This document shows, in pieces, positions 7,618-31,653 of a stretch of DNA of 32,000 nucleotides. The notes under the pieces are model-generated. The model was given only the letters and a program-made list of their open reading frames with translations. It was not told the DNA's origin and made no database searches. A program made the position numbers and the translations under genes. Source of the stretch: an uncultured Clostridia bacterium. Lineage in GTDB: Bacteria; Bacillota; Clostridia; Christensenellales; Aristaeellaceae. How positions within the stretch are numbered: position 1 is the first letter of the stretch; each line of letters starts with the position of its first letter. The stretch spans positions 66,950 to 98,949 of the forward strand of contig CAKUFG010000006.1 in assembly GCA_934647235.1 (NCBI GenBank), read 5' to 3'.

Positions 7618-7709
7618 GAAAGGGGACGAGGGGGCGAGAAAGGGGACGAGGGGGTACGTTACTTTCTTCACTGAAGAAAGTAACGTTCCCTTCGTTCTTT
7701 CCGTCCTCC
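7618..7709. repeat. Solo T element: two tandem purine-rich 20-mers, a 31-nt perfect palindrome and a pyrimidine-rich arm
   Basis: GAAAGGGGACGAGGGGG occurs twice (7618-7634, 7638-7654). The palindrome ACGTTACTTTCTTCACTGAAGAAAGTAACGT spans 7656-7686. TCCCTTCGTTCTTTCCGTCCTCC (7687-7709) ends directly at the GNAT stop codon. Confidence 0.85.
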
Positions 7710-8498: not shown

Positions 8499-8653
8499 TT
8501 TCATTTCCTCCATATTTTGTGATAGGTGAATAGGGAGCAAGGACGAGGGGGAGAGACGAGGGGACGTTACTTTCTTCAGTGAAGAAAGTAACAAAGAACC
8601 GGTTTTGCGTAAAAGCTGCTGGAATTAAACTGAAAGACAGGATTGCTGTAGAG

Positions 8654-8777
8654 CCCCGTGGCAGGGAAAAACTTGAATCGCTCGGTCTGGAGCAAGCTCC
8701 GCCCGCGCGCTTTTGCCTTTTTCCCCTATGGCCGTGCTGCGCACGTCCGCGCCGATTAAAATCGGCGTGCCACGGGG
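8654..8777. repeat. X module, alpha type (copy X1)
   Basis: CCCCGTGGCA (8654-8663) and TGCCACGGGG (8768-8777) close a multi-hairpin domain. Confidence 0.7.
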
Positions 8778-8877
8778 GCGTAGTTGGATGCGGAACCCTT
8801 GTGCGGTGATTTGCAATAGCTGGAGAGTGTACTCACCCAAAGGCTTCTCCTTGAGGAGAGGCTCCGCCGTAGGCGGT

Positions 8878-8955
8878 GGTGAGGTGTAGACCACGCAGTG
8901 GTCGTTATCATAACTATATAAAAGATAACGCCGCTGCGGCGGCTACACCTCATCC
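8878..8955. repeat. Y module, cloverleaf-like four-way junction (copy Y-A)
   Basis: GGTGAGGTGTAG and CTACACCTCATCC close three hairpins (GACCAC-GCA-GTGGTC, GTTATC..GATAAC, CCGC-TGCG-GCGG). Confidence 0.7.
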
Positions 8956-9059
8956 GAGCGGCTAAAGCCGCCCACCTTCCCCTCCAAGGGGAAGGCTTTT
9001 GGTGACCGTTCTATCTTACACTCGCTTTCCGCTGCGTCTGATTCCCACACCCAACCACG

Positions 9060-9185
9060 CCCCTCGTGGCACGCTGATCGCAGATCAGCGCGGGCGTGCG
9101 CAGCACGACCAAGGGGGAAAGCAGGAAGCGAACGGAGGAAAGCTTGCTTTCATCCGGGCGGTTCAGGCTTTCACCTGCCACGGGG
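9060..9185. repeat. X module, beta type (copy X3), inverted relative to X1
   Basis: CCCCTCGTGGCA and TGCCACGGGG close the domain. Nearly identical to 31378-31501. Confidence 0.7.
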
Positions 9186-9301
9186 CGGGTGGCCAGGGCC
9201 ACACCCAGTTTTATTCAATTGACTTTCACGTCGCACGCAGCTTTCTTTGGTACTTTCTTGGGCTCCAAGAAAGTACCGTTTTCCTCGTCCCCCTCGTCCC
9301 C

Positions 9302-10312
9302 TTATCTCCGGTTCTTGCGGTTGTACCTGGCAATTTGCTTCATTTTTTCATGCTTGGCGGCCAGCTGCGCCGCGCGGTCGGATTCCGCCGTCAGCGCCTG
9401 ATAGCGCTGCCATAGCCCCGCGTCCAGCGCGCCGCTTGCCAGCGCGGCGCGCACGGCGCAGCCCGGCTCGCAGGTGTGGGTGCAGTTGGAAAAGCGGCAG
9501 CGGCCGATCAGCTCCTCCACCGGCGCAAAGCTGTCGCGCAGCCCCTCACGGGCGAAAAGCAGCCCCATCTCGCGCATGCCGGGGGTGTCGATAATCATCG
9601 CGCCGCCGGGCAGCATCAGCAGCTGGCGCGCGGTGGTGGTGTGCCGCCCCTTGCCATCCTGGGCGCGGATGGCGGCGGTTGCCTGCGCATCCTGTCCCAG
9701 CAGGGCATTGATCAGGCTGGATTTGCCCACGCCCGAGCTGCCTAAGATCACCAGCGTGCGGCCGGGGGCCAGATAGGGCACAAGCCCCGCCATGCCCGCG
9801 CCCGTGGCGGCCGATACCGCCAGCGCCGGGACGTCGGGAAAGCGCTGCTGCACGGCGGCCAGATAGGGCTGGGCATCGGCGCACAGATCGGCCTTGGTCA
9901 GCAGGATCACCGGCGCGCCCCCGCTCTGCAGGGCCAGCGCCAGCGTGCGCTCCAGCCGCGGCAGGTTAAAATCCTGATTGAGCGATTGCGCAATCAGCAC
10001 GGTGTCAAAATTGGCCGCCACGGCCTGGGCCACGCGCCCCGGCGTGGGATCGCGGCGCGCAAAGCAGCTGCGGCGCGGCAGGGTGCGCACAATGGCGCTG
10101 TCGCCCGCCTGCTGCCAGGCAAGCAGCACAAAATCGCCCACGGTGGGAAACGTCTCGCCGCCGTAGTAGTACGCGCCGCCGCGCAGGGTGGCAAAGCCCG
10201 CGCCCGCATCGCACACAATCTGATAGCGGCCGCGATGCTCGCCTACAACGCGCGCGGCCAGGCAGGGGGAGTAGTCGTTGGGGTCGGTATACCCATAAGC
10301 TGAGATATGCAA
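9302..10312 (-). CDS. rsgA: Ribosome small-subunit-dependent GTPase A
   Basis: Circularly permuted GTPase motifs (TKAD, GSSGVGKSS, DTPG) and a C-terminal zinc knuckle (CRFSNCTHTCEPGC). TTG at 10312 lies 8 nt after GGAGG and is preferred. The listed start at 10351 is also TTG. Confidence 0.85.
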   Translation of the reverse strand: MHISAYGYTDPNDYSPCLAARVVGEHRGRYQIVCDAGAGFATLRGGAYYYGGETFPTVGDFVLLAWQQAGDSAIVRTLPRRSCFARRDPTPGRVAQAVAANFDTVLIAQSLNQDFNLPRLERTLALALQSGGAPVILLTKADLCADAQPYLAAVQQRFPDVPALAVSAATGAGMAGLVPYLAPGRTLVILGSSGVGKSSLINALLGQDAQATAAIRAQDGKGRHTTTARQLLMLPGGAMIIDTPGMREMGLLFAREGLRDSFAPVEELIGRCRFSNCTHTCEPGCAVRAALASGALDAGLWQRYQALTAESDRAAQLAAKHEKMKQIARYNRKNRR

Positions 10313-10626: not shown

Positions 10627-10655
10627 TTGTACAATCGATAAAGATGGTATATAAT
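10627..10655 (+). promoter_or_regulatory. Candidate sigma-70-type promoter for pgk
   Basis: TTGTAC (10627-10632), 17 nt, TATAAT (10650-10655). It sits about 70 nt upstream of the pgk ATG. Confidence 0.6.
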
Positions 10656-10725
10656 GGACGATGTGTGCGGGCCTTTGCCCGTCTCAAGCTGACGCCCCAA
10701 TTTTCCAGCAAAAAGGAGAATGATT

Positions 10726-12021
10726 ATGAAAAAGACCATCGAAGACGTAAACGTACAGGGCAAAAAAGTGCTTGTCCGCGTGGACTTCAACGTGCCCATG
10801 GACAAGGAAACCGGCACCAAGATCACCGATGAAAACCGCATCATCGGCGCGCTGCCTACCATCCAGTATCTGCTCAGCCACGGCGCGGCCGTGATCCTGT
10901 GCTCCCATATGGGCAAGCCCCACAATGTGCTGAACGCCAAGCTCAAGCTGAACAAGAAGGAGCTGGCCAAGATTGCCGACCTGCCCGCCGAGGAGCAGGA
11001 GGCCGCCACCGAGAAGGCCCTCAAGAAGGCCGCTCAGGATGTGACCAAGCTGTCCCTGGCTCCCGTGGCCAAGCGCCTGGGCGAGCTGCTGGGCCAGGAA
11101 GTGATCATGGCCAAGGACGTAATCGGCGAAGACGCCAAGGCCAAGGCCGCCGCGCTGCAGCCCGGCCAGGTGCTGCTGCTGGAAAACCTGCGCTTCCATG
11201 CTGAAGAAGAGAAGAACGATCCCGACTTCGCCAAGGCGCTGGCTTCCTATGCCGATCTGTATGTAAACGACGCCTTCGGCACCGCGCACCGCGCGCATGC
11301 CTCCACCGCCGGCGTGGCCGCCTATCTGCCCGCCGTTTCCGGCTACCTGATTGAAAAAGAGCTCAAGTTCCTGGGCAGCGCCGTGGATAACCCCGCCCGT
11401 CCCTTCGTGGCCATCCTGGGCGGCGCCAAGGTTTCCTCCAAGATCGGCGTGATCACCAACCTGATCGACAAGTGCGACGCGCTGATCATCGGCGGCGGCA
11501 TGGCTTACACCTTCGTCAAGGCCATGGGCGGCAGCATCGGCAACAGCCTGCTGGAAGAGGACAAGCTGGATCTGTCCCGCGAGATCATGGAAAAGGCCAA
11601 GGCCAAGGGCATCAAGTTCCTGCTGCCCATCGACACCGTGTGCGCCGACAGCTTCTCCAACGACGCCAACACCCAGGTGGTGCCCGTCAGCGAGATTCCC
11701 GATGGCTGGGAGGGCATGGACATCGGCCCCAAGACCCAGGCGCTCTTTGCCGAGACCATCAAGAACGCCAAGACCGTTGTCTGGAACGGCCCCATGGGCG
11801 TGTTCGAGTTCCCCAATTTCGCCAAGGGCACCATCGCTGTGGCGCAGGCCATGGCGGATTCTGACGCTGTGACCATCGTTGGCGGCGGCGACAGCGCGGC
11901 GGCCGTGACCCAGCTGGGTTTCGCGGACAAGATCGATCACATCTCCACCGGCGGCGGCGCGAGCCTGGAGTTCCTGGAAGGCAAGACCCTGCCCGGCGTT
12001 GCGGCCCTGAACGATAAGTAA
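10726..12021 (+). CDS. pgk: Phosphoglycerate kinase (with an extra N-domain segment of about 36 aa)
   Basis: Strongly Pgk-like throughout ([44 protein letters not shown]). ATG at 10726 lies 6 nt after AGGAGA. Confidence 0.95.
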
Positions 12022-12252
12022 GATACGAAAAGGGACGAGGGGAACGAGGAAACGGGGGAAACGTTACTTTCTTCAGTCATAGCGCCGCCGCAGGCGGCTG
12101 AGGGCGCGCAATTTTGCAAATTGCCGCCCGAAACCCGCGCTTGCCGCAAGGCAGTAGCGCGGGGCGTACAAGGAAAGTAACAAAGAACCTGTGTGTGACG
12201 TAAAAGTCAAGCTGATAAAACTGGGAGTGGCCCTGTCCACCTGCTGCCCCAC

Positions 12253-12372
12253 CCCCGTGGCAGGGAAAATTCGCGTGTCCGGATCGGCGCAAGCGCCATC
12301 CGTTCACTTGAATATTTCCCCTATGGCCTGGCTTCGCCAGCCCGCGCCGATTAAAATCGGCGTGCCACGGGG
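12253..12372. repeat. X module, alpha type (copy X2)
   Basis: CCCCGTGGCA (12253-12262) and TGCCACGGGG (12363-12372) close the domain. It shares the hairpin CGCCGATTAAAATCGGCG with X1. Confidence 0.7.
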
Positions 12373-12477
12373 CATGTTGGTTGATTGCGAAAACTCTGCG
12401 CGGCGATTAGCGGCTGTTGGAAAACGCACTCACCAAAAGGCTTCTCCTTGAGGAGAAGCTGTCAGCGAGAACTGACT

Positions 12478-12554
12478 GATGAGGTGTAGGCTGCGCAGCA
12501 GCCGTTAGCAAAGCTATATAGAGGATAACGCCGCAGCGGCGGCTACACCTCATC
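12478..12554. repeat. Y module (copy Y-B)
   Basis: GATGAGGTGTAG and CTACACCTCATC close three hairpins. Confidence 0.7.
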
Positions 12555-12777
12555 CGCTTCACTGCGTTCAGCACCTTCCCCTCGGAGGGGAAGGCTTCCG
12601 TAGGCTGTGCCAATGCAGCAGCATACCTTCGCCACTTGCAAAGCGCACGACTATAAAAGCCTTCTCCTAAACGGGAGAAGGTGTCGAGCGCACCGCGAGA
12701 CGGATGAGGGGGTTCCCTCAAACGTTCCCCATTCATCCCCTCCCCATCCTTAATTAGCAGTAAAAGGAGATAAAACA

Positions 12778-13530
12778 ATGCGTACTCCCATTATCGCTGG
12801 CAACTGGAAAATGAACAAGACCCCTGCCGAGGCGACCCAGCTGATCCAGGAGCTCAAGCCCCTGGTGAAGGACGCCAAGAGCACCGTGGTTGTGTGCGTG
12901 CCCGCCCTGTGCGTGCATGCCGCCAAGCAGGCCGCCCGCGGCAGCAAGATCAAGGTGGGCGTGCAGAACATGCACTGGGCTGCCTCCGGCGCCTACACGG
13001 GCGAGCTGTCCGCCGATATGTGCAAGGCTTGCGGCGTGGACTATGTGATCGTAGGCCACAGCGAGCGCCGTCAGTACTTTGGCGAAACCGACGAGACCGT
13101 CAACAAGCGCGCGCTGGCCGTGGTTCGCGCGGGCATGACCCCCATCATCTGCGTGGGTGAGCGCAAGGAGCAGCGCGAAGCCGGCTACACCGACGCGCTG
13201 GTGGAGTATCAGACCCTGATCGCCCTGACCGGCATGACCCCGGACGAGGTGAAGAAGGTTGTCATCGCTTACGAGCCCGTATGGGCCATCGGCACGGGCC
13301 TGACCGCCACGGACGAGCAGGCCAACGAGACCATCGGCGTCATCCGCGCCGCGCTGGCCCGCAAGTATGGCAAGCGCGTGGCAGACAAGGTGCGCATTCA
13401 GTACGGCGGCAGCATGAAGCCCTCCAACGTGGACGGCCTGATGAAGCAGCCCGAAATCGACGGCGGCCTGATCGGCGGCGCGTCCCTGAAGGCAGAGGAT
13501 TTCGCCCGCATCGTCAACTATCAAGAATAA
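12778..13530 (+). CDS. tpiA: Triosephosphate isomerase
   Basis: Canonical TIM motifs (IAGNWKMN, VGHSERR, AYEPVWAIGTG, YGGS). AAAAGGAGA RBS. Confidence 0.95.
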   Translation: MRTPIIAGNWKMNKTPAEATQLIQELKPLVKDAKSTVVVCVPALCVHAAKQAARGSKIKVGVQNMHWAASGAYTGELSADMCKACGVDYVIVGHSERRQYFGETDETVNKRALAVVRAGMTPIICVGERKEQREAGYTDALVEYQTLIALTGMTPDEVKKVVIAYEPVWAIGTGLTATDEQANETIGVIRAALARKYGKRVADKVRIQYGGSMKPSNVDGLMKQPEIDGGLIGGASLKAEDFARIVNYQE

Positions 13531-13893: not shown

Positions 13894-14151
13894 ATATGAA
13901 ATGCGCTATGCTTCAGGACAGAGAATCGGGTAAGATACATGTGGATTTTTATTGGTGAAATTTATAACTCTATAGCCGTTTTTAGTTTTAGGCAGGAAAA
14001 TGATTTGGAAAAACAGAACGAAGCAAAGGTTATGCTGCGGCATCAGCGATTGAAAGCCGCATATATGCAGACGCAGTGAAGCTGGACAAAGCAAATGCAA
14101 TGTGTTATTTTTTCTATGCTCAGGTACGCAAGTTAAGGGAGGCTGCATATC

Positions 14152-15903
14152 GTGGAAGGCCAGAAGAGAAGCATAAGGCGAGAGATTACGATTGCAATTT
14201 TAATCAGCGCGGCCATACAGCTTATTTTGGTTTGGATGCTGTTTTTGCTGCACTACGTAAATGCAGCAGCGATGGTTCAGCGTTATGTGATTGCGGACAC
14301 ACAAAAGAGCATGGCGCAAATGGATGCTTATCTAAAGCAGCAGATGAACACAGTGGTGGAACTGTCGTACAGCAATTTTATAGAAGCATATGCGAAAGCG
14401 ACGCATGCAAGACGATATGAAACATACCCTTATATTTCACAGGCGTTATACGAAATGCTCCTGGATCAGCAAACCGTTGGGTGTACGCTGCTCTTTGAGA
14501 ATGATACATCGCTGCGCATCGGCATAGGAGTGACTGATTATCTGCTGAAGGATGCAAGAAGCATTGGCGGATTTCAGCATTGGAGCGGGCAGAAGCGATC
14601 CTTACTTTTGTGGTCTGCACCGATCTATGGAAACGAACTGCTGCTGCAGAGACGGGGAGATTTCTGGATCGTTTTTGACATGGATGCATTGATGAAAAAG
14701 TACTTTGGCGCTGTTTCTGCCTGCTTCAGCGGGAAAGAATTGATTGGCTGCTCCTATGACCCGCAAAAGCTGGATCCGTTTGAAAATAAGGCTGCCGCGT
14801 CTTTTTTGCAAGGTGAAACCGGCACGGTTCATATTGATGGAGACGTATATGTTTATGCGCATTCTGTCAGCAGCGTTTTGGACTGTGATGTGCTTGCGCT
14901 GTATAAAGAAGCGGATATGATCAAGACGGATTCCGGGTTTTTGATGTCCTGTGCCCTATTCAGCTTGATTATCTGCGGGATTTCCAGCCTTGTGCTGTTT
15001 TCGCTGCAAACCAGGGTCAGCGCTCCAATCAATGGCCTGTGCAGTCAGGTAAGGGGGATCAGAAACGGCAGCCAGAAGAAAATTGGTGAAAGCGACGGCA
15101 GCTTTACTGAACTGGACTACCTGACGGATGAGATCAACAAGCTGCTGGATACACTGGCGGAACAAGCGATTGTCGAAAACCAGCTGCAGCAAAACCTGCT
15201 GGCATCGCGCACACATTATATGCAGGAACAGGCATTGCGCATGCAGACACAGATTAATCCGCACTTCCTGTACAACAACCTGGAATGCATCCGGGGAATG
15301 GCGCGGGATGGCGCATGGGATATAATTTGCCGGATGAGTACATCGATGGCGCGCATTTATGCCTATGCGGCCCGCCGCAGTGCATTGACAGCTGCGCTGC
15401 GGGAGGAGCTGCAGTGTGTAAAAGAATATGAAACCATTATCGAATTGCGTTATGACGGACAGTTCCGCTTTGAATGCGCTATCGCGCCGGAATGTCTGGA
15501 TATGCAGCTGCCTCGAATGACTCTGCAGCCTGTATGCGAGAACAGCGTTATCCATGGCAGAAGAATGGATGGCACCCAGCAGGTTATACGAATAGCGGCG
15601 TGCGTGCAGGGTGAGTATATGGAGCTGACGGTGTGCGATAATGGCAGGGGAATACCGCAAAAACGCATGGAAGAGCTGAACGAAGAAATATACCAATGGC
15701 GCGAGAAAAAAGGAGAAAAGCTGTATGAGGACCGCATAGGGCTGATTAATATCAGCCAGCGTTTGTTTATCCTTTATGGCAAAAACAGCAGCATTCACAT
15801 GGAACAAGACCAGGATAACGGGACGCTGACGCGCATCCGAATTCCCAAGCGCCTGCAGGAGACATCCACGCAGACACCCGATGAGAATACACAAAATCGC
15901 TGA
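14152..15903 (+). CDS. Sensor histidine kinase, YesM/LytS-type (His_kinase + HATPase_c)
   Basis: GTG start 9 nt after AAGGGAGG. Two TM segments flank an extracytoplasmic domain of about 230 aa. Motifs QINPHFLYNNLECI and CDNGRGIP are present. Confidence 0.85.
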   Translation: MEGQKRSIRREITIAILISAAIQLILVWMLFLLHYVNAAAMVQRYVIADTQKSMAQMDAYLKQQMNTVVELSYSNFIEAYAKATHARRYETYPYISQALYEMLLDQQTVGCTLLFENDTSLRIGIGVTDYLLKDARSIGGFQHWSGQKRSLLLWSAPIYGNELLLQRRGDFWIVFDMDALMKKYFGAVSACFSGKELIGCSYDPQKLDPFENKAAASFLQGETGTVHIDGDVYVYAHSVSSVLDCDVLALYKEADMIKTDSGFLMSCALFSLIICGISSLVLFSLQTRVSAPINGLCSQVRGIRNGSQKKIGESDGSFTELDYLTDEINKLLDTLAEQAIVENQLQQNLLASRTHYMQEQALRMQTQINPHFLYNNLECIRGMARDGAWDIICRMSTSMARIYAYAARRSALTAALREELQCVKEYETIIELRYDGQFRFECAIAPECLDMQLPRMTLQPVCENSVIHGRRMDGTQQVIRIAACVQGEYMELTVCDNGRGIPQKRMEELNEEIYQWREKKGEKLYEDRIGLINISQRLFILYGKNSSIHMEQDQDNGTLTRIRIPKRLQETSTQTPDENTQNR

Positions 15904-15963
15904 AGATGTCCATTTTTCTGCCAGATTAAGCATGATATAATGCGAAAAAAGGAGGCTGATCTC

Positions 15964-16899
15964 ATGGTAAGTGCAAAGGATGCGCGGCGCGCCGTTCCCA
16001 TATGGAAGCGCATGCTGCAGGCGAAGTACATTTATTTGATGCTGATTCCCGCCATTTTATACTACGCGGTATTTGTATATAAGCCTATGTACGGCGTGCT
16101 GATGGCATTTCAAAAGTACAACGTCCGTAAGGGAATCTGGGGCAGCAAATGGATTGGGTTTGCAAACTTTGAACGCTTATTCAACAGTCCGGCGGCGCTT
16201 CGGGCGGTGATGACTACACTGGAAATCAGCGTTACCCGTTTATGTATTGAGTTTTGCTGCCCGATTATACTGGCGATTTTCATCAATGAAATGCGAGGGA
16301 CAAAGCTCAAGCGCGTATACCAGACGATATACACTTTTCCCCATTTTTTGTCCTGGGTAATCGTGGGTTCCATTATCAAGATGATCTTCCGCGAAAGCGG
16401 TTTGGTGAATTCGCTGCTTGGTTTGATGGGGGTTGAACCGATCAATTTTCTGGCATCCAAAAGCTTTTTCCGGCCGCTGCTGTATGGCAGCTCGATATGG
16501 AAGGGCGTGGGCTGGGCGGCCATTATTTATATGGCGGGCATTGCCGGCATCAGCCCTGAGCTGTATGAGGCGGCTGAGGTAGACGGAGCTGCCCGGCTGC
16601 AGCGGATCATTCATATTACGCTGGCCGGCATTATGCCCGTTATCATTATTCAGCTGATCCTGTCGGTCGGCGGCCTGCTGGGCGGCTCCTTTGATCAGAT
16701 TTATAACCTGCAAAATGCGGTGGTTAAATCTGTGGCGACAACCATTGATATTTATGTATATGATATCACCTTCAGCGCGGTGCCTGATTATGGGTTCTCT
16801 ACAGCGGTGGGACTTTTCCGATCTGTAATTAATATCATCTTGATGTTTATTGCCAACGGCGTTATCAAAAGGATTAACGGCCAGGGCTTGTTAGGCTAA
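15964..16899 (+). CDS. Sugar ABC transporter permease (LplB/YesP-like)
   Basis: ATG at 15964 lies 8 nt after GGAGG. The N-terminus resembles LplB (WKRMLQAKYIYLMLIPAILYYAVFVYKPMYG). Confidence 0.85.
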   Translation: MVSAKDARRAVPIWKRMLQAKYIYLMLIPAILYYAVFVYKPMYGVLMAFQKYNVRKGIWGSKWIGFANFERLFNSPAALRAVMTTLEISVTRLCIEFCCPIILAIFINEMRGTKLKRVYQTIYTFPHFLSWVIVGSIIKMIFRESGLVNSLLGLMGVEPINFLASKSFFRPLLYGSSIWKGVGWAAIIYMAGIAGISPELYEAAEVDGAARLQRIIHITLAGIMPVIIIQLILSVGGLLGGSFDQIYNLQNAVVKSVATTIDIYVYDITFSAVPDYGFSTAVGLFRSVINIILMFIANGVIKRINGQGLLG

Positions 16900-16918
16900 A
16901 GGAAAGGGAGAAAGCACG

Positions 16919-17881
16919 ATGAACGCATCTGCCAAATATCAGAAAAATGTGCAGGCTGCGGCGCTGCGCACTGGCTTCAAAAAGAAAAAAAGAAAAAAGC
17001 TGGACCTGCTGGATATCATTATTTATACAGTGCTTACGCTGCTGGCGGTGTCTATTATCATTCCCATTTATCATGTAATTCTGGTTTCACTGGCGAGCAA
17101 CAGAACCTACATGACCAATCCGGGCATGATGTTTCTTAAGCCTTCAGATATTACGCTGATTAACTATAAGTACATTTTTGAGTCGCCTATTTTAGCAACC
17201 GGCTATAAATCGACGCTTTTCATCACCGTATTAGGCACGGTTTACGGCATGAGCATTACGCTGCTGGCAGCATATGCGCTTTCCAGGCCGGCTTATCCAG
17301 GCAAAAAGCTGTTCTTTGTGCTGTTTATTCTGATTCCAATGTACTTTGGCGGCGGGATGATTCCGGCATACCTGAACCTGCGCGATCTGGGGCTGCTGAA
17401 CAAGCAGATAACCATTGTTATTATGATGGGCGTATCTGGATTCAACATGCTGATCATCAAGAGTAATATCGAGCAGATGCCCGAGGGCTTGCTGGAGGCG
17501 GCCAGACTGGACGGCGCTTCGGAGCTGGTTATATTTGTGCGCATCGTTTTGCCGCTGCAGCTGCCTATCATTGCTACGTTTTCCTTGTTTACGGCGGTAG
17601 GATACTGGAACGAGTGGTTCTGGCCCATGATGGTGCTGGACAAATCCGAGCAGTGGCCGCTGCCCCTGGTGCTGCGGGCCGTGGTGAACAGCGGCATCGG
17701 CAATTTCCAGGATGCTGCCAGCGAAAGCATGCAGTCCTATAAGAATTTGCAGGATTCGGTTTCCGCTACCGGCACTACCATGGCCACGCTGTTTATGACA
17801 ATGCTTCCCATCATGGTAACATATCCTTTCCTGCAAAAGTACTTTGTAAAGGGCACCCTTGTGGGCGCAATTAAAATGTAA
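16919..17881 (+). CDS. Sugar ABC transporter permease (LplC/YesQ-like)
   Basis: 320-aa polytopic protein. EAA-like loop LEAARLDGASELVIFVRIVLP. Confidence 0.85.
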   Translation: MNASAKYQKNVQAAALRTGFKKKKRKKLDLLDIIIYTVLTLLAVSIIIPIYHVILVSLASNRTYMTNPGMMFLKPSDITLINYKYIFESPILATGYKSTLFITVLGTVYGMSITLLAAYALSRPAYPGKKLFFVLFILIPMYFGGGMIPAYLNLRDLGLLNKQITIVIMMGVSGFNMLIIKSNIEQMPEGLLEAARLDGASELVIFVRIVLPLQLPIIATFSLFTAVGYWNEWFWPMMVLDKSEQWPLPLVLRAVVNSGIGNFQDAASESMQSYKNLQDSVSATGTTMATLFMTMLPIMVTYPFLQKYFVKGTLVGAIKM

Positions 17882-17961
17882 TCAATGCCTGGGTATACAC
17901 GGGCTTGATCGTAATCGTAATGTTTCTCTCATGACCGACCCAAAAGAAAGGAGCACTCCCG

Positions 17962-19518
17962 ATGAAAAAATGGTTGACCCTGCTTCTGGCGCTTGCCCTG
18001 CTGCTGCCTCACTGTGCTGCACTGGCGGACGAGCCCGCTTACGGCCCTTATGATAAGCATGTGAGCTTTACTGCCAGCCAGTATAGCCAGATCACTGAAG
18101 GCGGCGATTATACCCACGATGAAGTGTACTATAAGCTGCAGGACATGTTCAATTTTGACTGGGAGCTGTATGCCGTGGATGGCAGCGCCTGGCATGAAAA
18201 GAACACCATGTGGATTACCGGCGGCACGATGCCTGATATCCTGTTCTTTGGCTGGAATGCCGTCGAATACCAGCAGTATGCCGAGCAGGAGCTGATTAAG
18301 CCCTTGCCGGACGGGTGGGAAAGCAAGTATCCTAACCTGGCTGCGCAGGTGGAGGCTACGGGCATTGCCGAAGCCATCAAGGTAAACGGAAAGACCTATG
18401 GTATTCCGCATACGATTATTCATCTGGTCGGCCCCAAGAACTTTGTTTACGCTATGCATACCCTGTATTACTATCGCCTTGACTGGGCGAAGGAGCTGGG
18501 CTATGATTGGGGCGTAAGCTGCACGCTGGATGAATTTACGAGCTATCTGCGTGACTGTAAGGAAAAATTCGGCAGCGTCGGCATGGTGCAGAGCACCGGC
18601 ACGCTGCTTAAACCGCTTCTGTATCAGTTCAGCAAAGGCTACAATGCGATCTACAAGAATGAGGAAGGCAAGTACGTGCTTGGCTTTGCGGACAAGGGCA
18701 CGGTTGAAGGCACTCAGTTCCTGCGCGATATGTACAACGAGGGCCTGATCTCCAAGGAGTATTACCTGAGCAACTATAATGAATGGTATGCCGGTAAGGC
18801 GGCTGTTATCGAATATTGGGGCGGTCCGCTGCATCCCCAGGATATGGCGAACAACTGGCTTGCTGCCGCCAGCGAACCCAACGCCAAAACCCTGGATGAT
18901 GTGAAGAATATTATTGGCACTGTTACTGTGACCGATAATAACGGCGTGTATCATGCGGCAGGTACGCAGGGCAATTTCTGCTTCGGCTCCCTGTTCAGTC
19001 CCGATCTGGATGACGAAACCTTCGATCGTATTCTGGCCATGTATGATTATTTTGCTACGCTGGAGGGCTTTGAGCTGACGCAGCTGGGTATTCGCGGCGT
19101 GGATTGGGACAAGGATGAGGAAGGCCATTATACGCTGCTGTGCCCCGAGATTCTGGATGGTACCTATGCTGTGATCCGTGAAAAGTATCCCTCGATGTAT
19201 TATCTGTACCTGCGCAACGTGCTGTCCGATTCTGCTGCCTATATCAATCCGCTGATCGATTCTTATTGGCGGCAGATGAGCGACGATATGTACGAATTCC
19301 GCTGCAGCCAGGATATCGTGCCCTTTGACGCGGATCTGGCTTTCTATTCCAGCGATGCGGCGAATCATTATTCCATCAACTGGAACACTGCGGTGGATCG
19401 GCTTGTGCTGGACAGCAGCCTGGATATCGAAACTGAAGTGGCGCGCCTGATTGAGGAAAACCGCTTTATGTGGGAGCCGCTTATCAACGAACTGAATGAG
19501 AAATTCGGCGCCAAATAA
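17962..19518 (+). CDS. Large extracellular sugar-binding protein (LplA/LipO-like SBP)
   Basis: 518 aa. Signal peptide MKKWLTLLLALALLLPHCAALADE, with a Cys but no canonical lipobox. Size and context fit Lpl-type SBPs. Confidence 0.8.
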   Translation: MKKWLTLLLALALLLPHCAALADEPAYGPYDKHVSFTASQYSQITEGGDYTHDEVYYKLQDMFNFDWELYAVDGSAWHEKNTMWITGGTMPDILFFGWNAVEYQQYAEQELIKPLPDGWESKYPNLAAQVEATGIAEAIKVNGKTYGIPHTIIHLVGPKNFVYAMHTLYYYRLDWAKELGYDWGVSCTLDEFTSYLRDCKEKFGSVGMVQSTGTLLKPLLYQFSKGYNAIYKNEEGKYVLGFADKGTVEGTQFLRDMYNEGLISKEYYLSNYNEWYAGKAAVIEYWGGPLHPQDMANNWLAAASEPNAKTLDDVKNIIGTVTVTDNNGVYHAAGTQGNFCFGSLFSPDLDDETFDRILAMYDYFATLEGFELTQLGIRGVDWDKDEEGHYTLLCPEILDGTYAVIREKYPSMYYLYLRNVLSDSAAYINPLIDSYWRQMSDDMYEFRCSQDIVPFDADLAFYSSDAANHYSINWNTAVDRLVLDSSLDIETEVARLIEENRFMWEPLINELNEKFGAK

Positions 19519-19553
19519 AACAATCTGACCTGCCAAAGGGCGGAGGTGTGAAG

Positions 19554-20270
19554 ATGTACCGAGCTATGATTGTGGACGATGACAGATGGGCCCTGAAGGA
19601 CATCTGCTCCACGTTTCATTTTCAACAGCAGGGCTTTGAGCTGGTTTCTTCCTGCACAAGCGGAGAAGAAGCCGAGGCTGCATTTGAACACCTTCGCCCT
19701 GATGTTTTGATTACGGATATCCAGCTGGGCGGTATGGACGGATTGGAGCTGATGCACCGCTGCCTGGCTATGAAGAACGATCTGATTACAATTATCGTAT
19801 CCGGACACAGCGATTTCAGCTACGCAAAGGACGCTCTGAACGGGGGCGCGACGCACTACCTGCTTAAACCGATTGACGGAAGCGAAGCTGTTCTTGCGCT
19901 GCAAAAATGCTACGCTGCGCTTACCTCGCGCAAACCGAAGGATAACGAAGACTGCATAGCGAGCATCTGCAGCTATGTTGGCGCGCATCTGTCGCCCTCT
20001 CTGACGCTGGCGGAAATTGCAAACCAGTATTATCTGAACGTTACCTATCTTTCAGAACTGTTTCAAAGAAGAATGGGCGTTTCATTTTCTGCGTATAAGA
20101 AAAAATGCATGCTGGAGAAGGCGTGCGATGTGCTTAAGCAGAGGGATTCCCGCGTAATGGAGGCGTCCGAAAGCTGCGGCTTCCAGGATATTCATTATTT
20201 CTCTCGCTGGTTCAAGGAACAAACAAAAATGAGCCCCAAGGAATACAAAGAGCTATTTTGCCGCCGCTGA
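19554..20270 (+). CDS. Response regulator with AraC-type HTH output (YesN-like, compact)
   Basis: ATG at 19554 lies 7 nt after GGAGG. REC domain (IVDDD, VLITDIQLGGMDG, LLKP) plus a single AraC HTH (FQDIHYFSRWFKEQTKMSPKEYK). Confidence 0.85.
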   Translation: MYRAMIVDDDRWALKDICSTFHFQQQGFELVSSCTSGEEAEAAFEHLRPDVLITDIQLGGMDGLELMHRCLAMKNDLITIIVSGHSDFSYAKDALNGGATHYLLKPIDGSEAVLALQKCYAALTSRKPKDNEDCIASICSYVGAHLSPSLTLAEIANQYYLNVTYLSELFQRRMGVSFSAYKKKCMLEKACDVLKQRDSRVMEASESCGFQDIHYFSRWFKEQTKMSPKEYKELFCRR

Positions 20271-20289
20271 TAAATGGAGGATAATAAAA

Positions 20290-21570
20290 ATGACGGAATG
20301 GCATTATGCATTATACGGTGACGGCGTTCACGACGATACGGACGCCATTCAGGAGCGCTTGGACAGCCGAATAGCCTGCGTGTATCTGCCCGCGCCGAAA
20401 AAACATTATTGTATTAGCCGGACGCTGAAAATTCACAGCAATCAGACGCTGCGTTTGGATTCAACCACGGAAATCCGCCTGATGCCTAAATGCGATTTCT
20501 GCATGATTACCAATGCAGACCCGCGCGGTGAAGATCAGCATATCACCGTCGAAGGCGGAATATGGAACATGGACAATATGAACCAGACGCCCTTTATGGC
20601 GCATTTGAAGGTGCTGCCGGGCGATCGGTATCCGCGCAACTATGCGCCGGGCTTTCCGCCGCTGAGCGATAAATGGAATAATGCTGCAAATCAGGATGGC
20701 CAATACGATCTCCCGGAAGAATGCGGGTATATGAGCGCCGAGGGCAGCATCTGCACAATGGTGTTTTCTCATATCAAATATTTTACGCTGCGCAATCTGA
20801 CCATTAAGAACCCGCGATATTTTGCAACCTATATGTTCTATCTTCAGTATTTTACCATTGAGAATATCACCTTTGATTTCAATTACGGCAATCCATATGC
20901 AATTCATATGGACGGCATTCATCTGGACGGCGGCTGCAGGTTTGGGCATATCCGCAACCTGCAGGGACGCTGCTTTGACGATTTGCTGGCGCTCAACGCA
21001 GACGATTCGATCTATGGTCCCATCGAGGATATCAGCGTTGACGGACTATACAGCGATAATTGCCACAGCGCTGTGCGCATGCTTTCCACAAAGTCCTGGA
21101 TTCGCAACATCAATATACAAAATGTATACGGTACTTATTGGCAGTATGCAGTCGGCATCACGCGCTTTCATTATCGTCCTGACGAGGTGAACAGCCTGGG
21201 GCTGTATGATAACATAATGCTGAAAAATATCTGTGTTTCCAAGGCGCCCAGATACAGCCTGTACTGCAAGGATGACAGCTATGTTTACCCGCTGATTTTT
21301 ATCGAGCGTTTGCTGCATATCGGCAGGCTGCATATTGAAAATCTACACCGGTTGGAAAAGGTTACGCCGATCGATACCATTTATGTGGGCGAAAAAACGG
21401 ATATAAGCGAAATGGTGATTACTGATTCTTCGCAGGAGAATCGCCTTGCGGAGCCGTTCCCATTCCTGCGCAGCGAGGGCATGATTGAAAAACTGATTAT
21501 TTCCAATACAGACAGCGGAAAGGACGATCTTTTGGCGGGAAACATGCCAAAGCTGTTTTTTTCAAGATGA
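20290..21570 (+). CDS. Right-handed beta-helix protein, GH28-related/pectate-lyase-superfamily-like; no signal peptide
   Basis: The N-terminal motif YGDGVHDDTDAIQERLDS is typical of the Pectate_lyase_3-type fold. There is no hydrophobic N-terminus. Confidence 0.6.
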   Translation: MTEWHYALYGDGVHDDTDAIQERLDSRIACVYLPAPKKHYCISRTLKIHSNQTLRLDSTTEIRLMPKCDFCMITNADPRGEDQHITVEGGIWNMDNMNQTPFMAHLKVLPGDRYPRNYAPGFPPLSDKWNNAANQDGQYDLPEECGYMSAEGSICTMVFSHIKYFTLRNLTIKNPRYFATYMFYLQYFTIENITFDFNYGNPYAIHMDGIHLDGGCRFGHIRNLQGRCFDDLLALNADDSIYGPIEDISVDGLYSDNCHSAVRMLSTKSWIRNINIQNVYGTYWQYAVGITRFHYRPDEVNSLGLYDNIMLKNICVSKAPRYSLYCKDDSYVYPLIFIERLLHIGRLHIENLHRLEKVTPIDTIYVGEKTDISEMVITDSSQENRLAEPFPFLRSEGMIEKLIISNTDSGKDDLLAGNMPKLFFSR

Positions 21571-22841
21571 TCCAGGAGAAGCTTTCTATGAACAGGCTGC
21601 GTGGATTGGGCAGAATTCTCTCGGCTCAAATTGGGCTGAACATGCTGAGCAAATCCTATAAACGCTATTTGCTTACCTATATGCTGTTCACCATTGGCGG
21701 AACGATATCGAGCAGCTACTTCAGCTTTTTTCTTCTGCGTGCAACGGGCAGCGAAAGCTCGCTGCGCATATACAACCTGCTGATTGCCTGCGTGCAGCCG
21801 TTTATCATGCTGCCTGCGCTTGCAGTGCTGAAACGATGGTCGGTATCAGTGTGCATGCGCATTGGTCTGCTTATTCACACTGCGGCGTATGCGCTGCTGG
21901 CAGCCAGCGGAAATGCGGATATGGCTACTGTATATGCTGTATCGGCAATGCTCTCGTCGGGCAATGCATTTATCTTTACGGCTTATACGCCGCAGCAGCT
22001 GGCTTATGCAACGGATGAAAACCGGGATGCTTGCTACGGGGTCGTCAGCGTATTGAGTACAATTGTCAGCCTTGTGCTGCCCCTGACAACGGGGCTGTTT
22101 ATCAGCCGCTTTGACGATTTGACGGGCTATTCCGTTCTGTTTGCAGCATCATCGCTGATTACCTTAGGCAGCTTCGCCGCTTCTTTTCGGCTGACGCCTG
22201 TGGTATATGGAGATCGGCGGCAGAAAAACGTACTGCGCAGAACGATGAAGGCTTTCCTGGGCAGCAAGAAAATTTGGGCCAGCATGATTGCAACCATGCT
22301 GGACGCTATGCGCGCGCACGGATTCGGCTTTTTTTCTGCATTGCTGGTATTTGATCTGATTGGCAGAGAAAGCGTAATGGCGGTGTTCAGCGTTGCGACA
22401 ACCATTGTGAACATGATGATGAGCATTGCTTACACGCGGATGGCAACGCCGCGTAACCGCGGCTGGCTGATGCTGCTGGGCGCGGTGGGCTATACCATCG
22501 CCGTAGCGATCGTATGCCTGGACCATACGTTTACAGGGTATATCATGTATGCGCTGCTGAGCACTATTGTAAGCGTATTCATTTCCAATCCCGTTTTAAC
22601 CAGCTATCTCAGCGCAGTGCAAAACGATTCTTTCCTGTGTCAGCATGGCGCGGAGGTGCACTTGCTGCGTGAAGTCTTTGTGGCCTCAGGGCGCGTAATT
22701 GGCTTGCTGCCAGCTTTTTTGATGCCTGACCCGACAGAATACGCGGCAGTTATGATGCTTTTGTTCGCCGCCGTGCAGATTCCTGCTGCGCTGCTGACAA
22801 AGTACCTGCAGCGCAGGGTTAATTTGGAGCAATCGACATAA
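21567..22841 (+). CDS. MFS-type transporter
   Basis: About 12 hydrophobic spans. The ATG overlaps the preceding stop (ATGA). Internal starts are possible. Confidence 0.7.
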   Translation: MIQEKLSMNRLRGLGRILSAQIGLNMLSKSYKRYLLTYMLFTIGGTISSSYFSFFLLRATGSESSLRIYNLLIACVQPFIMLPALAVLKRWSVSVCMRIGLLIHTAAYALLAASGNADMATVYAVSAMLSSGNAFIFTAYTPQQLAYATDENRDACYGVVSVLSTIVSLVLPLTTGLFISRFDDLTGYSVLFAASSLITLGSFAASFRLTPVVYGDRRQKNVLRRTMKAFLGSKKIWASMIATMLDAMRAHGFGFFSALLVFDLIGRESVMAVFSVATTIVNMMMSIAYTRMATPRNRGWLMLLGAVGYTIAVAIVCLDHTFTGYIMYALLSTIVSVFISNPVLTSYLSAVQNDSFLCQHGAEVHLLREVFVASGRVIGLLPAFLMPDPTEYAAVMMLLFAAVQIPAALLTKYLQRRVNLEQST

Positions 22842-22905
22842 ATAGCCGGGACAAGGGCGGGCTTGTCTGCTGACAAGGGCGGGAATGATAATAAGAAAGC
22901 CAAAT

Positions 22906-22953
22906 AAAAAGCAGCGCATCTGCCGAAGCAATTTCGGCAGATGCGCTGCTTTT
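22906..22953. terminator. Bidirectional terminator between the convergent MFS and dehydrogenase genes
   Basis: Perfect 17-bp stem GCAGCGCATCTGCCGAA (22911-22927) pairing with TTCGGCAGATGCGCTGC (22933-22949), flanked by AAAAA and TTTT. Confidence 0.85.
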
Positions 22954-22981
22954 GGGGCTGCATCGGGCATGAGAGCATGCG

Positions 22982-23932
22982 TCAGCACAGATTCATTGGT
23001 TCCCCATCCAGCCAGGCATAGAGATTCTGGAAAACGATCCGCGCGCGGCGCAGCATGCTTTCCTCACTGGCGAAGGCGATGTGCGGGGTCAGGATGATGT
23101 TGGGCGCGTGCAGCAGGGGCTCGCTGTCGTCCAGCGGCGGCTCGCGATCATACACATCCACCGCCGCGCCAGCCAGATGGCCGCTGCGCAGCGCGCCGCA
23201 CAGCGCCTGCGAATCCACCAGCGCGCCGCGGGCGCAGTTGATAAACAGCGCGCCGGGCTTCATTTGGGCAAACTCGGCTTCGCCGATCATTTTGTGCGTC
23301 TGCGCGCAGGCGGGCGCATGCAGGGTAACGATGTCGCTGCTTTCCAGCACCTCGCGCAGCGAGGCATACTGCACGCCCAGCTGGCGCGCCTGCTCCATGG
23401 GTTTGGGATCATAGGCTACCACCCGCGCGCCGAAGGCCAGCATCAGCCGCGCCACGCGCAGCCCGATGCGTCCCAGCCCCACGATGCCCACCGTGCGCTC
23501 GGCAATCTCGCGGCCGATCAGCCCCACGCTGCCCTGATGCGCGCGCACCGCGGCGTCGCAAGCAGGCAGCCTGCGCAGCAGCGCAATGGCCATGCCCACC
23601 GTCAGCTCGGCCACGCTCTGATTGGAATAATTGGCCGCGTTGCTCACCAGCACGCCGCGCGCGCGGCACGCCTCCATGGGCACATGATCCACGCCCGTAA
23701 AGGCCACGTCGATGTATTTGAGCGCGGGATTTTCCGTCACCGCCTCGGCGGGAAAGGGCGTGTTGGCGATGATCACCGCATCCATGCCCTGCGCGCGGCG
23801 GATCACCTCCTGCGGGGAATCCGCCTTGGTATCATAGACGGTCAGCTCATGCCCGCGTTCCAGCACGGGCGCGGCCATCTCCCGCAGCATTTCTTCGCTT
23901 ACGTTCAAGGGCTCAAGCAGCGCGATTTTCAT
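22982..23932 (-). CDS. D-isomer-specific 2-hydroxyacid dehydrogenase family protein (NAD-binding)
   Basis: GIVGLGRIGLRVARL dinucleotide-binding motif, plus PGALFINCARG and HIAFAS motifs. AAGGAGG RBS. Confidence 0.85.
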   Translation of the reverse strand: MKIALLEPLNVSEEMLREMAAPVLERGHELTVYDTKADSPQEVIRRAQGMDAVIIANTPFPAEAVTENPALKYIDVAFTGVDHVPMEACRARGVLVSNAANYSNQSVAELTVGMAIALLRRLPACDAAVRAHQGSVGLIGREIAERTVGIVGLGRIGLRVARLMLAFGARVVAYDPKPMEQARQLGVQYASLREVLESSDIVTLHAPACAQTHKMIGEAEFAQMKPGALFINCARGALVDSQALCGALRSGHLAGAAVDVYDREPPLDDSEPLLHAPNIILTPHIAFASEESMLRRARIVFQNLYAWLDGEPMNLC

Positions 23933-30878: not shown

Positions 30879-30955
30879 TGTGAGGGCCGTAGCCGCCGCA
30901 GCGGCGTTATCTTATATAGTTATGATAACGGCTGCTTCGCAGCCTACACCTCATC
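30879..30955. repeat. Y module, degenerate copy (Y-C1, inverted)
   Basis: The three internal hairpins are intact. The closing helix is interrupted (GTGAGGGCCGTAG versus CTACACCTCATC). Confidence 0.55.
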
Positions 30956-31199
30956 AGTCAGCTCTCGCTGACAGCTTCTCCTCAAGGAGAAGCCTTTTGG
31001 GTGATCGCACTCTCCAACGCATGTAAACTGCCGCGCTCCCCCCTCATCCGTCTCGCTGTGCGTTCGACACCTTCTCCCGAGGGAGAAGGCTTTTATAGTC
31101 GTGCTTTTGCTAAACTAAGCTTCGAGAACGCACTACCGCATTGGCACAGCCGCCAAAAGCCTTCCCCTTTGAGGGGAAGGTGGCGAATGTAATGAGCCG

Positions 31200-31274
31200 G
31201 ATGAGGTGTAGCCGCCGCAGCGGCGTTATCTTATATAGTTATGATAACGGCTGCTTCGCAGCCTACACCTCATC
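31200..31274. repeat. Y module (Y-C2, inverted)
   Basis: GATGAGGTGTAG and CTACACCTCATC close three hairpins. Confidence 0.7.
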
Positions 31275-31377
31275 AGTCAGCATTCGCTGACAGCTTCTCC
31301 TCAAGGAGAAGCCTTTTGGTGGCTGTTCTTTCCAGCTATCGATAGCCGTTATGCTTGATTTTCGCACCTAGCCATCG

Positions 31378-31501
31378 CCCCGTGGCACGCTGATCGCAGA
31401 TCAGCGTGGGCGTGCGCAGCACGACCAAGAGGAAAAGCAGGAAGCGAACGGAGGAAAGCTTGCTTTCATCCGGACGGTTCAGGCTTTCACCTGCTACGGG
31501 G
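31378..31501. repeat. X module, beta type (copy X4)
   Basis: CCCCGTGGCA (31378-31387) and TGCTACGGGG (31492-31501) close the domain. By manual alignment it differs from 9060-9185 by about five substitutions and one 2-nt indel. Confidence 0.7.
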
Positions 31502-31653
31502 GTAGGGCGGCAGGTGGCCAGGGCCACTCCCTGTTTTCGTCCAATAGACTTTTACGTCACACACAGGTTCTTTGTTACTTTCTTCACTGAAGAAAGTAAC
31601 GTCCTCCCCGTTTCCCCGCCCTCCTCGTCCCTCCATGCCAGAAAGGAACCGTC

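Follow-up and report, generated by a model that had tools for sequence, protein, structure and literature searches.

The stretch analysed here (hereafter the window), 32,000 nucleotides (nt) of contig CAKUFG010000006.1 from an uncultured Clostridia bacterium, carries the genes for phosphoglycerate kinase (pgk) and triosephosphate isomerase (tpiA) separated by a spacer of 756 nt, counted from the end of the pgk stop codon at 12021 to the tpiA ATG at 12778. All but the last 28 nt of this spacer are taken up by a 728-nt block at 12022-12749, which is probably a non-coding, non-autonomous composite palindromic repeat of a high-copy intergenic family of a human-gut Clostridia species that was inserted at this site, remodelled, and passively carried. 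The preliminary description, made from the window alone, had measured the spacer and placed the right edge of the element at 12749 as we do; it had also called the block a copy of a repeat family and a large, highly structured RNA segment. Both statements are borne out, the first by three further copies that BLAST found in the window and the second by folding of the sense strand well beyond shuffled sequences (z -12.3). Its phrase "glycolytic gene string" goes too far: only pgk and tpiA are glycolytic here, and the neighbours are rsgA (upstream of pgk, on the opposite strand) and yhbY (downstream of tpiA).

The composite element between pgk and tpiA

The element is built of nested hairpin modules between a G-rich and a C-rich outer arm. 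The features of the locus are, in order:

10628-10655, + strand: sigma-70-like match TGTACA-16-TATAAT (consensus match only), the only one upstream of pgk and the candidate promoter of pgk, element, and tpiA
10720-12021, + strand: pgk (Pfam PF00162, E 3e-165), with its TAA stop at 12019-12021
12022-12031, + strand: 10-nt non-repeat residue of the original spacer, GATACGAAAA; this left junction is kept across strain alleles
12032-12062, + strand: G-rich outer arm of GGGACGAGGGG-type octamer repeats, strain-variable in copy number, pairing with the far-end C-rich arm
12063-12181, + strand: terminal hairpin H1, GTTACTTTCTTC ... GGAAAGTAAC, whose loop holds a three-hairpin module of ~95 nt at 12075-12169 (from sequence and fold)
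12182-12252, + strand: conserved linker AAAGAACCTGTGTGTGACGTAAAAGTC..., which follows H1 in nearly all family ends (H1-site survey)
12253-12372, + strand: module H2, a 10-bp closing stem CCCCGTGGCA / TGCCACGGGG with three inner hairpins; lineage-specific
12433-12600, + strand: conserved core unit U (pattern scan, alignment, and folds)
12439-12460, + strand: unit U hairpin GGCTTCTCC-TTGA-GGAGAAGC, with a second, small hairpin at 12461-12476
12477-12489, + strand: unit U stem strand TGATGAGGTGTAG, then hairpin a at 12490-12502
up to 12543, + strand: middle of unit U, consisting of CGTTA, an AT-rich spacer, and TAACG, then hairpin b at 12530-12543
12543-12555, + strand: unit U stem strand CTACACCTCATCC, then a degenerate small hairpin at 12556-12572
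12574-12594, + strand: last hairpin of unit U, CCTTCCCCT-CGG-AGGGGAAGG
12601-12699, + strand: extra module with a truncated half-unit, missing from several strain alleles
12657-12681, + strand: half-unit hairpin AAGCCTTCTCC-TAAAC-GGGAGAAGG, then GACGGATGAGG
12700-12749, + strand: terminal hairpin and C-rich outer arm GTTCCCCATTCATCCCCTCCCCATCC, closing the element on its right; the right junction is kept in all alleles
12750-12777, + strand: retained 28-nt tpiA leader with the Shine-Dalgarno sequence AAAGGAG at 12763-12769, invariant across alleles
12778-13530, + strand: tpiA (Pfam PF00121, TIM, E 1.7e-95), with its ATG from 12778

Folded as RNA, the spacer reaches -347.7 kcal/mol, compared with -269.2 +/- 6.4 kcal/mol for its shuffles, and the reverse strand also folds beyond shuffles (z -8.2). 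The element has terminal inverted repeats: in the minimum-free-energy fold, the G-rich arm (12032-12062) pairs with the C-rich arm (12724-12749), and because the outer arms pair end to end, the whole insert can loop out. Unit U folds identically under RNA and DNA parameters, with its closing stem predicted in both. The string GACGAGGGG occurs six times in the window, where 0.14 occurrences are expected. Most strain alleles have a plain 27-nt H1, and in a sister genome the module of the H1 loop is found at further sites as well.

Three candidate identities for parts of the element were rejected. G-quadruplex arms were set aside since the canonical motif exists in only some copies and alleles (L003, L005, L006, and the mini copy and copy C described below) and not in the pgk-tpiA copy of the window. 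A hammerhead ribozyme, suggested by CTGATGAG, was ruled out as neither GAAA nor a stem III follows the string, which is part of the unit U closing stem and varies (TGA/GGA/TGG). An integron attC or recombinase site was considered for H1, which has a 12-3-12 layout with a non-conserved centre, and a hairpin is more likely.

The strong structure, together with two open reading frames (ORFs) of 86 codons (12191-12451, + strand) and 123 codons (12407-12778, - strand) inside the element, raises the question of whether the block is itself a gene, encoding either a small protein or a separate large non-coding RNA. Neither ORF has a Pfam match, and strain indels break both. No promoter/terminator pair was found and no strand preference was seen, and Rfam held no match for the whole window at the gathering score and gave only chance-level hits for the element at E<=10. 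A gene of either kind is hardly credible.

BLAST of 12022-12749 against the window matched a copy C at 31582-31039 (77% over 556 nt, E 3e-113) and a copy B at 8654-8998 (73% over 352 nt, E 3e-50), as well as an inverted part of copy B at 9257-8880 and a mini copy at 7618-7696. With the pgk-tpiA copy, the four make up ~7% of the window DNA, and the core motif of the family, TGAGGTGTAG-N35-65-CTACACCTCA, occurs three times with 0.00 occurrences expected. The extents of the three further copies are:

7621-7709, unstranded: mini copy of ~90 nt with only G-arm, H1, and C-arm; it abuts the stop codon of a GNAT acetyltransferase gene
8539-9301, unstranded: copy B, two left halves (arm, H1, linker, H2) placed head-to-head around one unit U
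30889-31634, - strand: copy C, opposite in orientation to the pgk-tpiA copy, with an internal block duplicated

In copy B, the right part repeats the left part in inverted orientation. On the right, its arm directly adjoins the stop codon of rsgA (9302-9304); on the left, the arm stops ~35 nt away from the start of the GNAT gene. The C-rich arm of copy C ends 20 nt ahead of the ATG of the next gene (31654). The duplicated 112-nt block of copy C (30889-31000 and 31208-31319, 319 bp start-to-start) is 98% identical between its two copies and represents a recent partial duplication of the core-unit region.

Strain alleles and an empty site at pgk-tpiA

The history of the site was read from ten contigs that encode a TpiA protein identical to that of the window, of which L007 matches the window exactly and the other nine have spacers that differ from that of the window. 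All ten keep the element between pgk and tpiA. Their flanks (the last 900 nt of pgk and the whole of tpiA) are at least 97.3% identical, and their spacers measure 390, 525, 531, 539, 582, 653, 657, 660, and 756 nt. In the alignment, the alleles are mosaics with modules deleted, swapped, or inverted. The octamers of the G-arm (GGGGACGA-like) differ in number and spelling across L001-L010 in a microsatellite-like manner, the H1 loop module occurs in three alleles, H2 comes in two haplotypes, and the unit U region of three alleles holds a different variant in the opposite orientation. The L001 allele is without everything between two GAAACG strings, a microhomology deletion whose join falls at the shared GAAACG. 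The L002 allele, taken in reverse, is closer to paralog B (79.7%, 380 bits) than to ortholog A (70%, 131 bits), so the diversity arises by exchange with other copies rather than by mutation in place. Such variation fits a tolerated, recombining repeat, not a tuned regulator.

The preliminary description had proposed comparing related strains or species for an empty site, and one was found in L121, whose TpiA is 88% identical and which has the same pgk-tpiA-yhbY order with a spacer of 26 nt. Because the synteny is the same, this short spacer marks the element as an insertion. More distant contigs with 81% identical TpiA (L125-127) have spacers of 59-63 nt, L123 and L252 have a 511-nt version at the site, and in L250 and L251 tpiA lies behind other genes and the element is absent. 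The comparison shows an element inserted into an ancestrally short (~26 nt) pgk-tpiA spacer and since reshaped, both by deletions between short direct repeats and by paralogous copies exchanging sequence with it. Judged from the same contigs, the insertion is older than the sampled strain diversity of the lineage.

A repeat family in gut Clostridia

Modules other than unit U were found in close relatives only. A metagenome scan with H1 matched at least 120 human-gut contigs (L130-L249), and at 113 of the 134 H1 sites among the matches listed, a G/C-rich arm lies outside and an AAAGAAC linker inside, which identifies H1 plus arm as the terminus of the family. The species has at least 47 distinct genomic element ends and at least 0.84 arrays per 10 kb (counted >2 kb from any seed match), both lower bounds; this density implies hundreds of arrays per genome. 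Arrays measure 51-1097 nt with a median of 262 nt, so the pgk-tpiA copy is a large one. In half of the cases in which the 3' end of a neighbouring gene faces the element, H1 lies 16-35 nt from the stop codon, which means that the arm begins at or beside the stop codon, and arrays often end 20-120 nt ahead of start codons. They lie between 34 tandem, 16 convergent, and 4 divergent gene pairs, compared with 360, 55, and 63 for all adjacent gene pairs, i.e., they are enriched at gene 3' ends. Many of the H1 matches (L130-L249) lie within ~50 nt of a contig end, as expected if the family breaks short-read assemblies.

Unit U reaches further. It is a core of ~165 nt, in which two inverted GTAG-tagged hairpins are enclosed by an invariant stem of 11-13 bp and covarying hairpins lie outside. 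A scan of one genome per species with the exact pattern TGAGGTGTAG-N35-65-CTACACCTCA returned at least 110 loci, almost all in metagenome-assembled genomes (MAGs) of Clostridia; the hosts among the matches listed are Oscillospiraceae, Acutalibacteraceae, Ruminococcus, Faecousia, and unclassified Clostridia or Eubacteriales. Several MAGs hold at least 4-6 unit loci each, and the flanks of the scanned loci reveal the same five-to-seven-hairpin unit throughout.

In an alignment of 53 units, GTAG is invariant (53/53), as is the closing stem, and is followed by stems of 5-6 bp; this invariance is partly ascertained, as GTAG and the closing stem were required by the search pattern. The small hairpins are free to vary in sequence, and compensatory changes keep their pairing. 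Of the cells, 92.9% are paired; shuffling the columns lowers this to 78.8%, and sliding the partners to 42-54%. Changes on both sides are seen in 254 cells, where 91 are expected, and none of 500 shuffles reached the observed score. G-U mismatches on the reference strand number 32 and A-C mismatches 21 (a hand count from pair tables, not significant). Unit U has a weak intrinsic asymmetry (TGA...TCC versus GGA...TCA), so its orientation can be scored, and the tandem contexts contain 17 sense and 11 antisense units, i.e., no strand preference. The constraint acts on the hairpins as such and does not point to a single transcribed strand.

Gene contexts were taken from a home-made gene caller, whose output was tested against the genes called in L001 and L125 and against those of the window that Pfam had verified. 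None of the located core units falls inside a called ORF, and 68 units are distributed over 42 tandem, 23 convergent, and 3 divergent gene pairs.

These contexts bear on the suggestion, made in the preliminary description, that the block could govern how strongly pgk and tpiA are expressed relative to each other, taken here to mean that it is a selected cis-regulatory RNA, be it a processing site, a stability barrier, or an attenuator. The very stable fold, the presence of the element in every contig of the species that was examined, and the conservation of both junctions and of the tpiA leader would suit such a role, as would a weak predicted hairpin between the end of the C-rich arm (TCCTT) and part of the tpiA Shine-Dalgarno sequence. 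However, the content of the site is not conserved between strains, with spacers from 390 to 756 nt and the unit in either orientation; relatives manage with 26-63 nt; the same family occupies dozens of unrelated intergenic sites with no orientation bias to the genes; and the antisense strand folds nearly as well as the sense strand. Neither an Rfam match nor strand-specific conservation tied to one gene context, which would mark a structured RNA or a cis-regulatory leader, was found. We consider a selected RNA of this kind unlikely. The element is probably not a dedicated regulator of pgk and tpiA, and a gene-specific regulatory role is unsupported.

Several observations lie at the margins of the family. 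In the alphaproteobacterium Bosea caraganae (L052, L082, L088, L091), a repeat family shares the foot TGAGGTGTAG...CTACACCTCA exactly and has a comparable arrangement (CCCTCTCC-hairpin, GGTGAGGTGTAGGCC ... GGCCTACACCTCACC, hairpin); the shared foot could reflect a common type of recognising enzyme or convergence. Core units in L041 and L074, from a MAG labelled Mitsuokella sp. (a genus of Negativicutes), could reflect mis-binning or a wider host range. In another Clostridia MAG, a small gene for a DUF559/PD-(D/E)XK-type endonuclease (L027:2486-2833) has a core unit ~135 nt away; nothing in this one case indicates a link. Viral contigs gave only one match.

Transcription through the element and known repeat systems

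A crude consensus scan found no sigma-70-like site on the + strand of 12022-12777, in agreement with the earlier statement that the last 28 nt have no -35/-10 pair, and a similarly crude scan found no terminator-like hairpin with a T-run on this strand. The preliminary description had left two routes to tpiA, on the pgk mRNA or from a promoter within the element. With neither a promoter nor a terminator consensus on the sense strand of the element, the first is the most economical, and the second lacks a sense-strand candidate. In addition, tpiA is essential for a fermentative gut anaerobe and was presumably co-transcribed with pgk in the empty-site arrangement, so it is most likely still read through. 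The likeliest course is that tpiA is transcribed through the element from the promoter-like site upstream of pgk (10628-10655).

On the minus strand, two weak terminator-like hairpins with T-runs (12459-12440 and 12681-12660) were found. Considered with the enrichment of the family between convergent genes and its position flush with stop codons, they could indicate that the element is mainly a terminator or insulator that, e.g., blocks antisense transcription into pgk, as bidirectional gene-end hairpin repeats do. Yet the T-runs that follow the unit hairpins are short (typically GGCTTT), terminal hairpin H1 has no U-tract, no antisense promoter is evident downstream, and a sense-strand terminator would cut tpiA off. 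This function is very improbable.

If tpiA is read from pgk, the element would ride passively on the pgk-tpiA transcript. An untranslated stretch of 756 nt in an operon would normally be exposed to Rho-dependent polarity and to RNases. The element may be looped out of the transcript by its end-to-end pairing and dense folding, which would leave little unstructured RNA for Rho or RNases and keep the tpiA ribosome-binding site available. Almost the whole element is paired, with the C-rich arm sequestered by the G-rich arm, and this could plausibly explain the tolerance of such inserts.

It is plausible that the element incidentally affects how stable the mRNA is or how it is processed. In the malE-malF operon of Escherichia coli, one to three repetitive extragenic palindromic (REP) sequences of ~35 nt shield the upstream segment from 3' exonucleases, a function with experimental support. 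The pgk-tpiA element is likewise a stable palindromic repeat between two cistrons of what is probably one transcript; it differs as a 728-nt block known from sequence alone, in a host group (Firmicutes) whose RNases differ. By analogy with the upstream protection at malE-malF, a barrier to 3' exonucleases could stabilise the pgk segment and shift the Pgk:TpiA ratio as a by-product, and the strain variability, the lack of strand bias, and the many unrelated sites indicate that any such shift would be a side effect rather than a designed one.

The family is most similar to the REP sequences, REP doublets forming hairpins (REPINs), and bacterial interspersed mosaic elements (BIMEs) of Proteobacteria, GTAG-tagged extragenic palindromes mobilised by REP-associated tyrosine transposases (RAYTs) (Di Nocera 2013, PMC3733652; Bertels & Rainey 2011, PMC3116915). 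REPs form head-to-head heterodimers with stems of 5-13 bp, short loops, spacers of 20-100 nt, and complementary stem variants, and they favour tandem and convergent intergenic regions, with ends that touch stop codons (PMC3733652). The text of that 2013 survey names no Firmicutes (PMC3733652), and Group 1 RAYTs have been reported in Clostridia (PMC5581495). Like REPs, the unit hairpins have stems of 5-6 bp, loops of 3-4 nt, and an unpaired conserved GTAG at the foot. Like a REPIN or a head-to-head REP dimer, they form an inverted pair, TGAGGTGTAG-hairpin-CGTTA...TAACG-hairpin-CTACACCTCA, which has a spacer of 20-50 nt and is usually a heterodimer. The strictly extragenic, high-copy, mosaic arrays, which differ between strains, occur in tandem and convergent contexts, are often flush with stop codons, and carry complementary stem changes, match REPs and BIMEs as well. 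In contrast to REPs, the hosts are gut Clostridia, the GTAG lies within a longer invariant stem (TGAGGTGTAG / CTACACCTCA), and unit U adds four conserved flanking hairpins; in contrast to both REPs and BIMEs, the arrays are nested up to 1.1 kb, with lineage-specific outer layers and microsatellite-like G/C-rich arms.

The composite architecture also resembles that of BOX in Streptococcus pneumoniae, Correia in Neisseria, and ERIC/IRU in enterobacteria, which are modular repeats of the MITE (miniature inverted-repeat transposable element) type that are co-transcribed with genes; where these repeats are reported to affect the stability or processing of mRNA, they do so as a by-product of their insertion. 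Shared traits are the non-coding sequence, the terminal inverted repeats, the variable number of modules (boxA-boxB(n)-boxC-like), the position in intergenic spacers including those within operons, and folding as RNA. The pgk-tpiA element differs in having no sequence similarity to these repeats, no identified target-site duplication or parent insertion sequence, a deeper nesting of palindromes within palindromes, and purine-rich microsatellite-like outer arms. The family is of the REP/BIME/MITE kind and looks like, and would work like, a REP/BIME-type system; membership in the RAYT-mobilised group is left open. Searches of the literature by sequence string and by REP/REPIN and Clostridia keywords returned no description of the family, which appears to be new, i.e., undescribed and absent from Rfam.

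Spread of the family could involve a trans-acting single-strand DNA nuclease/transposase of the RAYT type, homologous recombination, or both. Weak tblastn matches of E. coli RayT fell on an alcohol dehydrogenase-like protein, a zinc-ribbon protein, and a large unrelated ORF, none of which is credible. Genes between paired units are dnaN, recF, and other housekeeping genes, with no transposase there.

Several findings weigh against a passively carried, read-through insertion. A RAYT/Y1 transposase was not found in the ~0.85 Mb and 0.75 Mb of fetched loci (tblastn with E. coli RayT and an HUH...Y scan). No target-site duplication is readable, and the sole empty site, L121, is too diverged for base-by-base alignment. 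Retention of the element in 10 of 10 contigs of the species could also mean that it is useful at the site. The case for read-through consists solely of missing consensus signals in crude scans. Finally, contig L122 (505-1006) joins the element and tpiA to a gene other than pgk, with an apparent terminator hairpin, seen by eye and not flagged by the scan, in between; if the contig is genuine, a promoter within the element would be required for tpiA. L122, along with the family arrays that often end shortly before start codons, suggests that the element may have its own promoter and that tpiA is transcribed independently of pgk. However, no sense-strand sigma-70-like match was found in the element, either in the window or in L122; divergent gene pairs, which need promoters between them, hold few members (3 of 68 units and 4 of 54 arrays); and L122 may be a chimeric assembly. 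An internal promoter is decidedly unlikely. L123, which encodes the same TpiA protein as L122, has pgk upstream, and L122 stems either from a rearrangement mediated by the repeat or from an assembly that is chimeric across it.

Going beyond a passively carried repeat, we tentatively suggest, as a possible but rather speculative extension, that the ~165-nt unit is the mobile module of an undescribed REPIN-like system of gut Clostridia (Oscillospirales and relatives). A host enzyme of the Y1/RAYT type would recognise the TGAGGTGTAG foot, the units would be built into kilobase-scale nested palindromes that start at stop codons, and their rapid turnover in operons such as pgk-tpiA would vary enzyme ratios. 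If true, modular turnover in operons would be a source of heritable expression variation between strains.

To our knowledge, the biology of REPs, BIMEs, and REPINs has been worked out almost wholly in Proteobacteria, and the family looks like an equally abundant, structurally richer REP counterpart in uncultured gut Clostridia, with a unit core that is conserved over many species and shows the covariation of a functional set of hairpins. In metagenome assemblies, such repeats cause breaks and false joins; they also inflate intergenic regions and can pass for riboswitch-like leaders. A structured insert of 0.4-0.8 kb in an essential glycolytic operon that is polymorphic among near-identical strains amounts to a natural experiment, in which the pgk-tpiA alleles illustrate the tolerance of an operon for long untranslated spacers and the evolution of repeats by paralog exchange.

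Downstream of the locus, window positions 14000-23000 form a ~9-kb block with a G+C content of 45-53%, compared with ~58-70% in the surroundings. It contains a histidine kinase gene and further + strand ORFs and has no copy of the repeat family. In place of this block, most of the contigs with identical TpiA carry a LysR regulator and an ABC exporter downstream of yhbY; this and the low G+C content make the block look like a strain-specific island.

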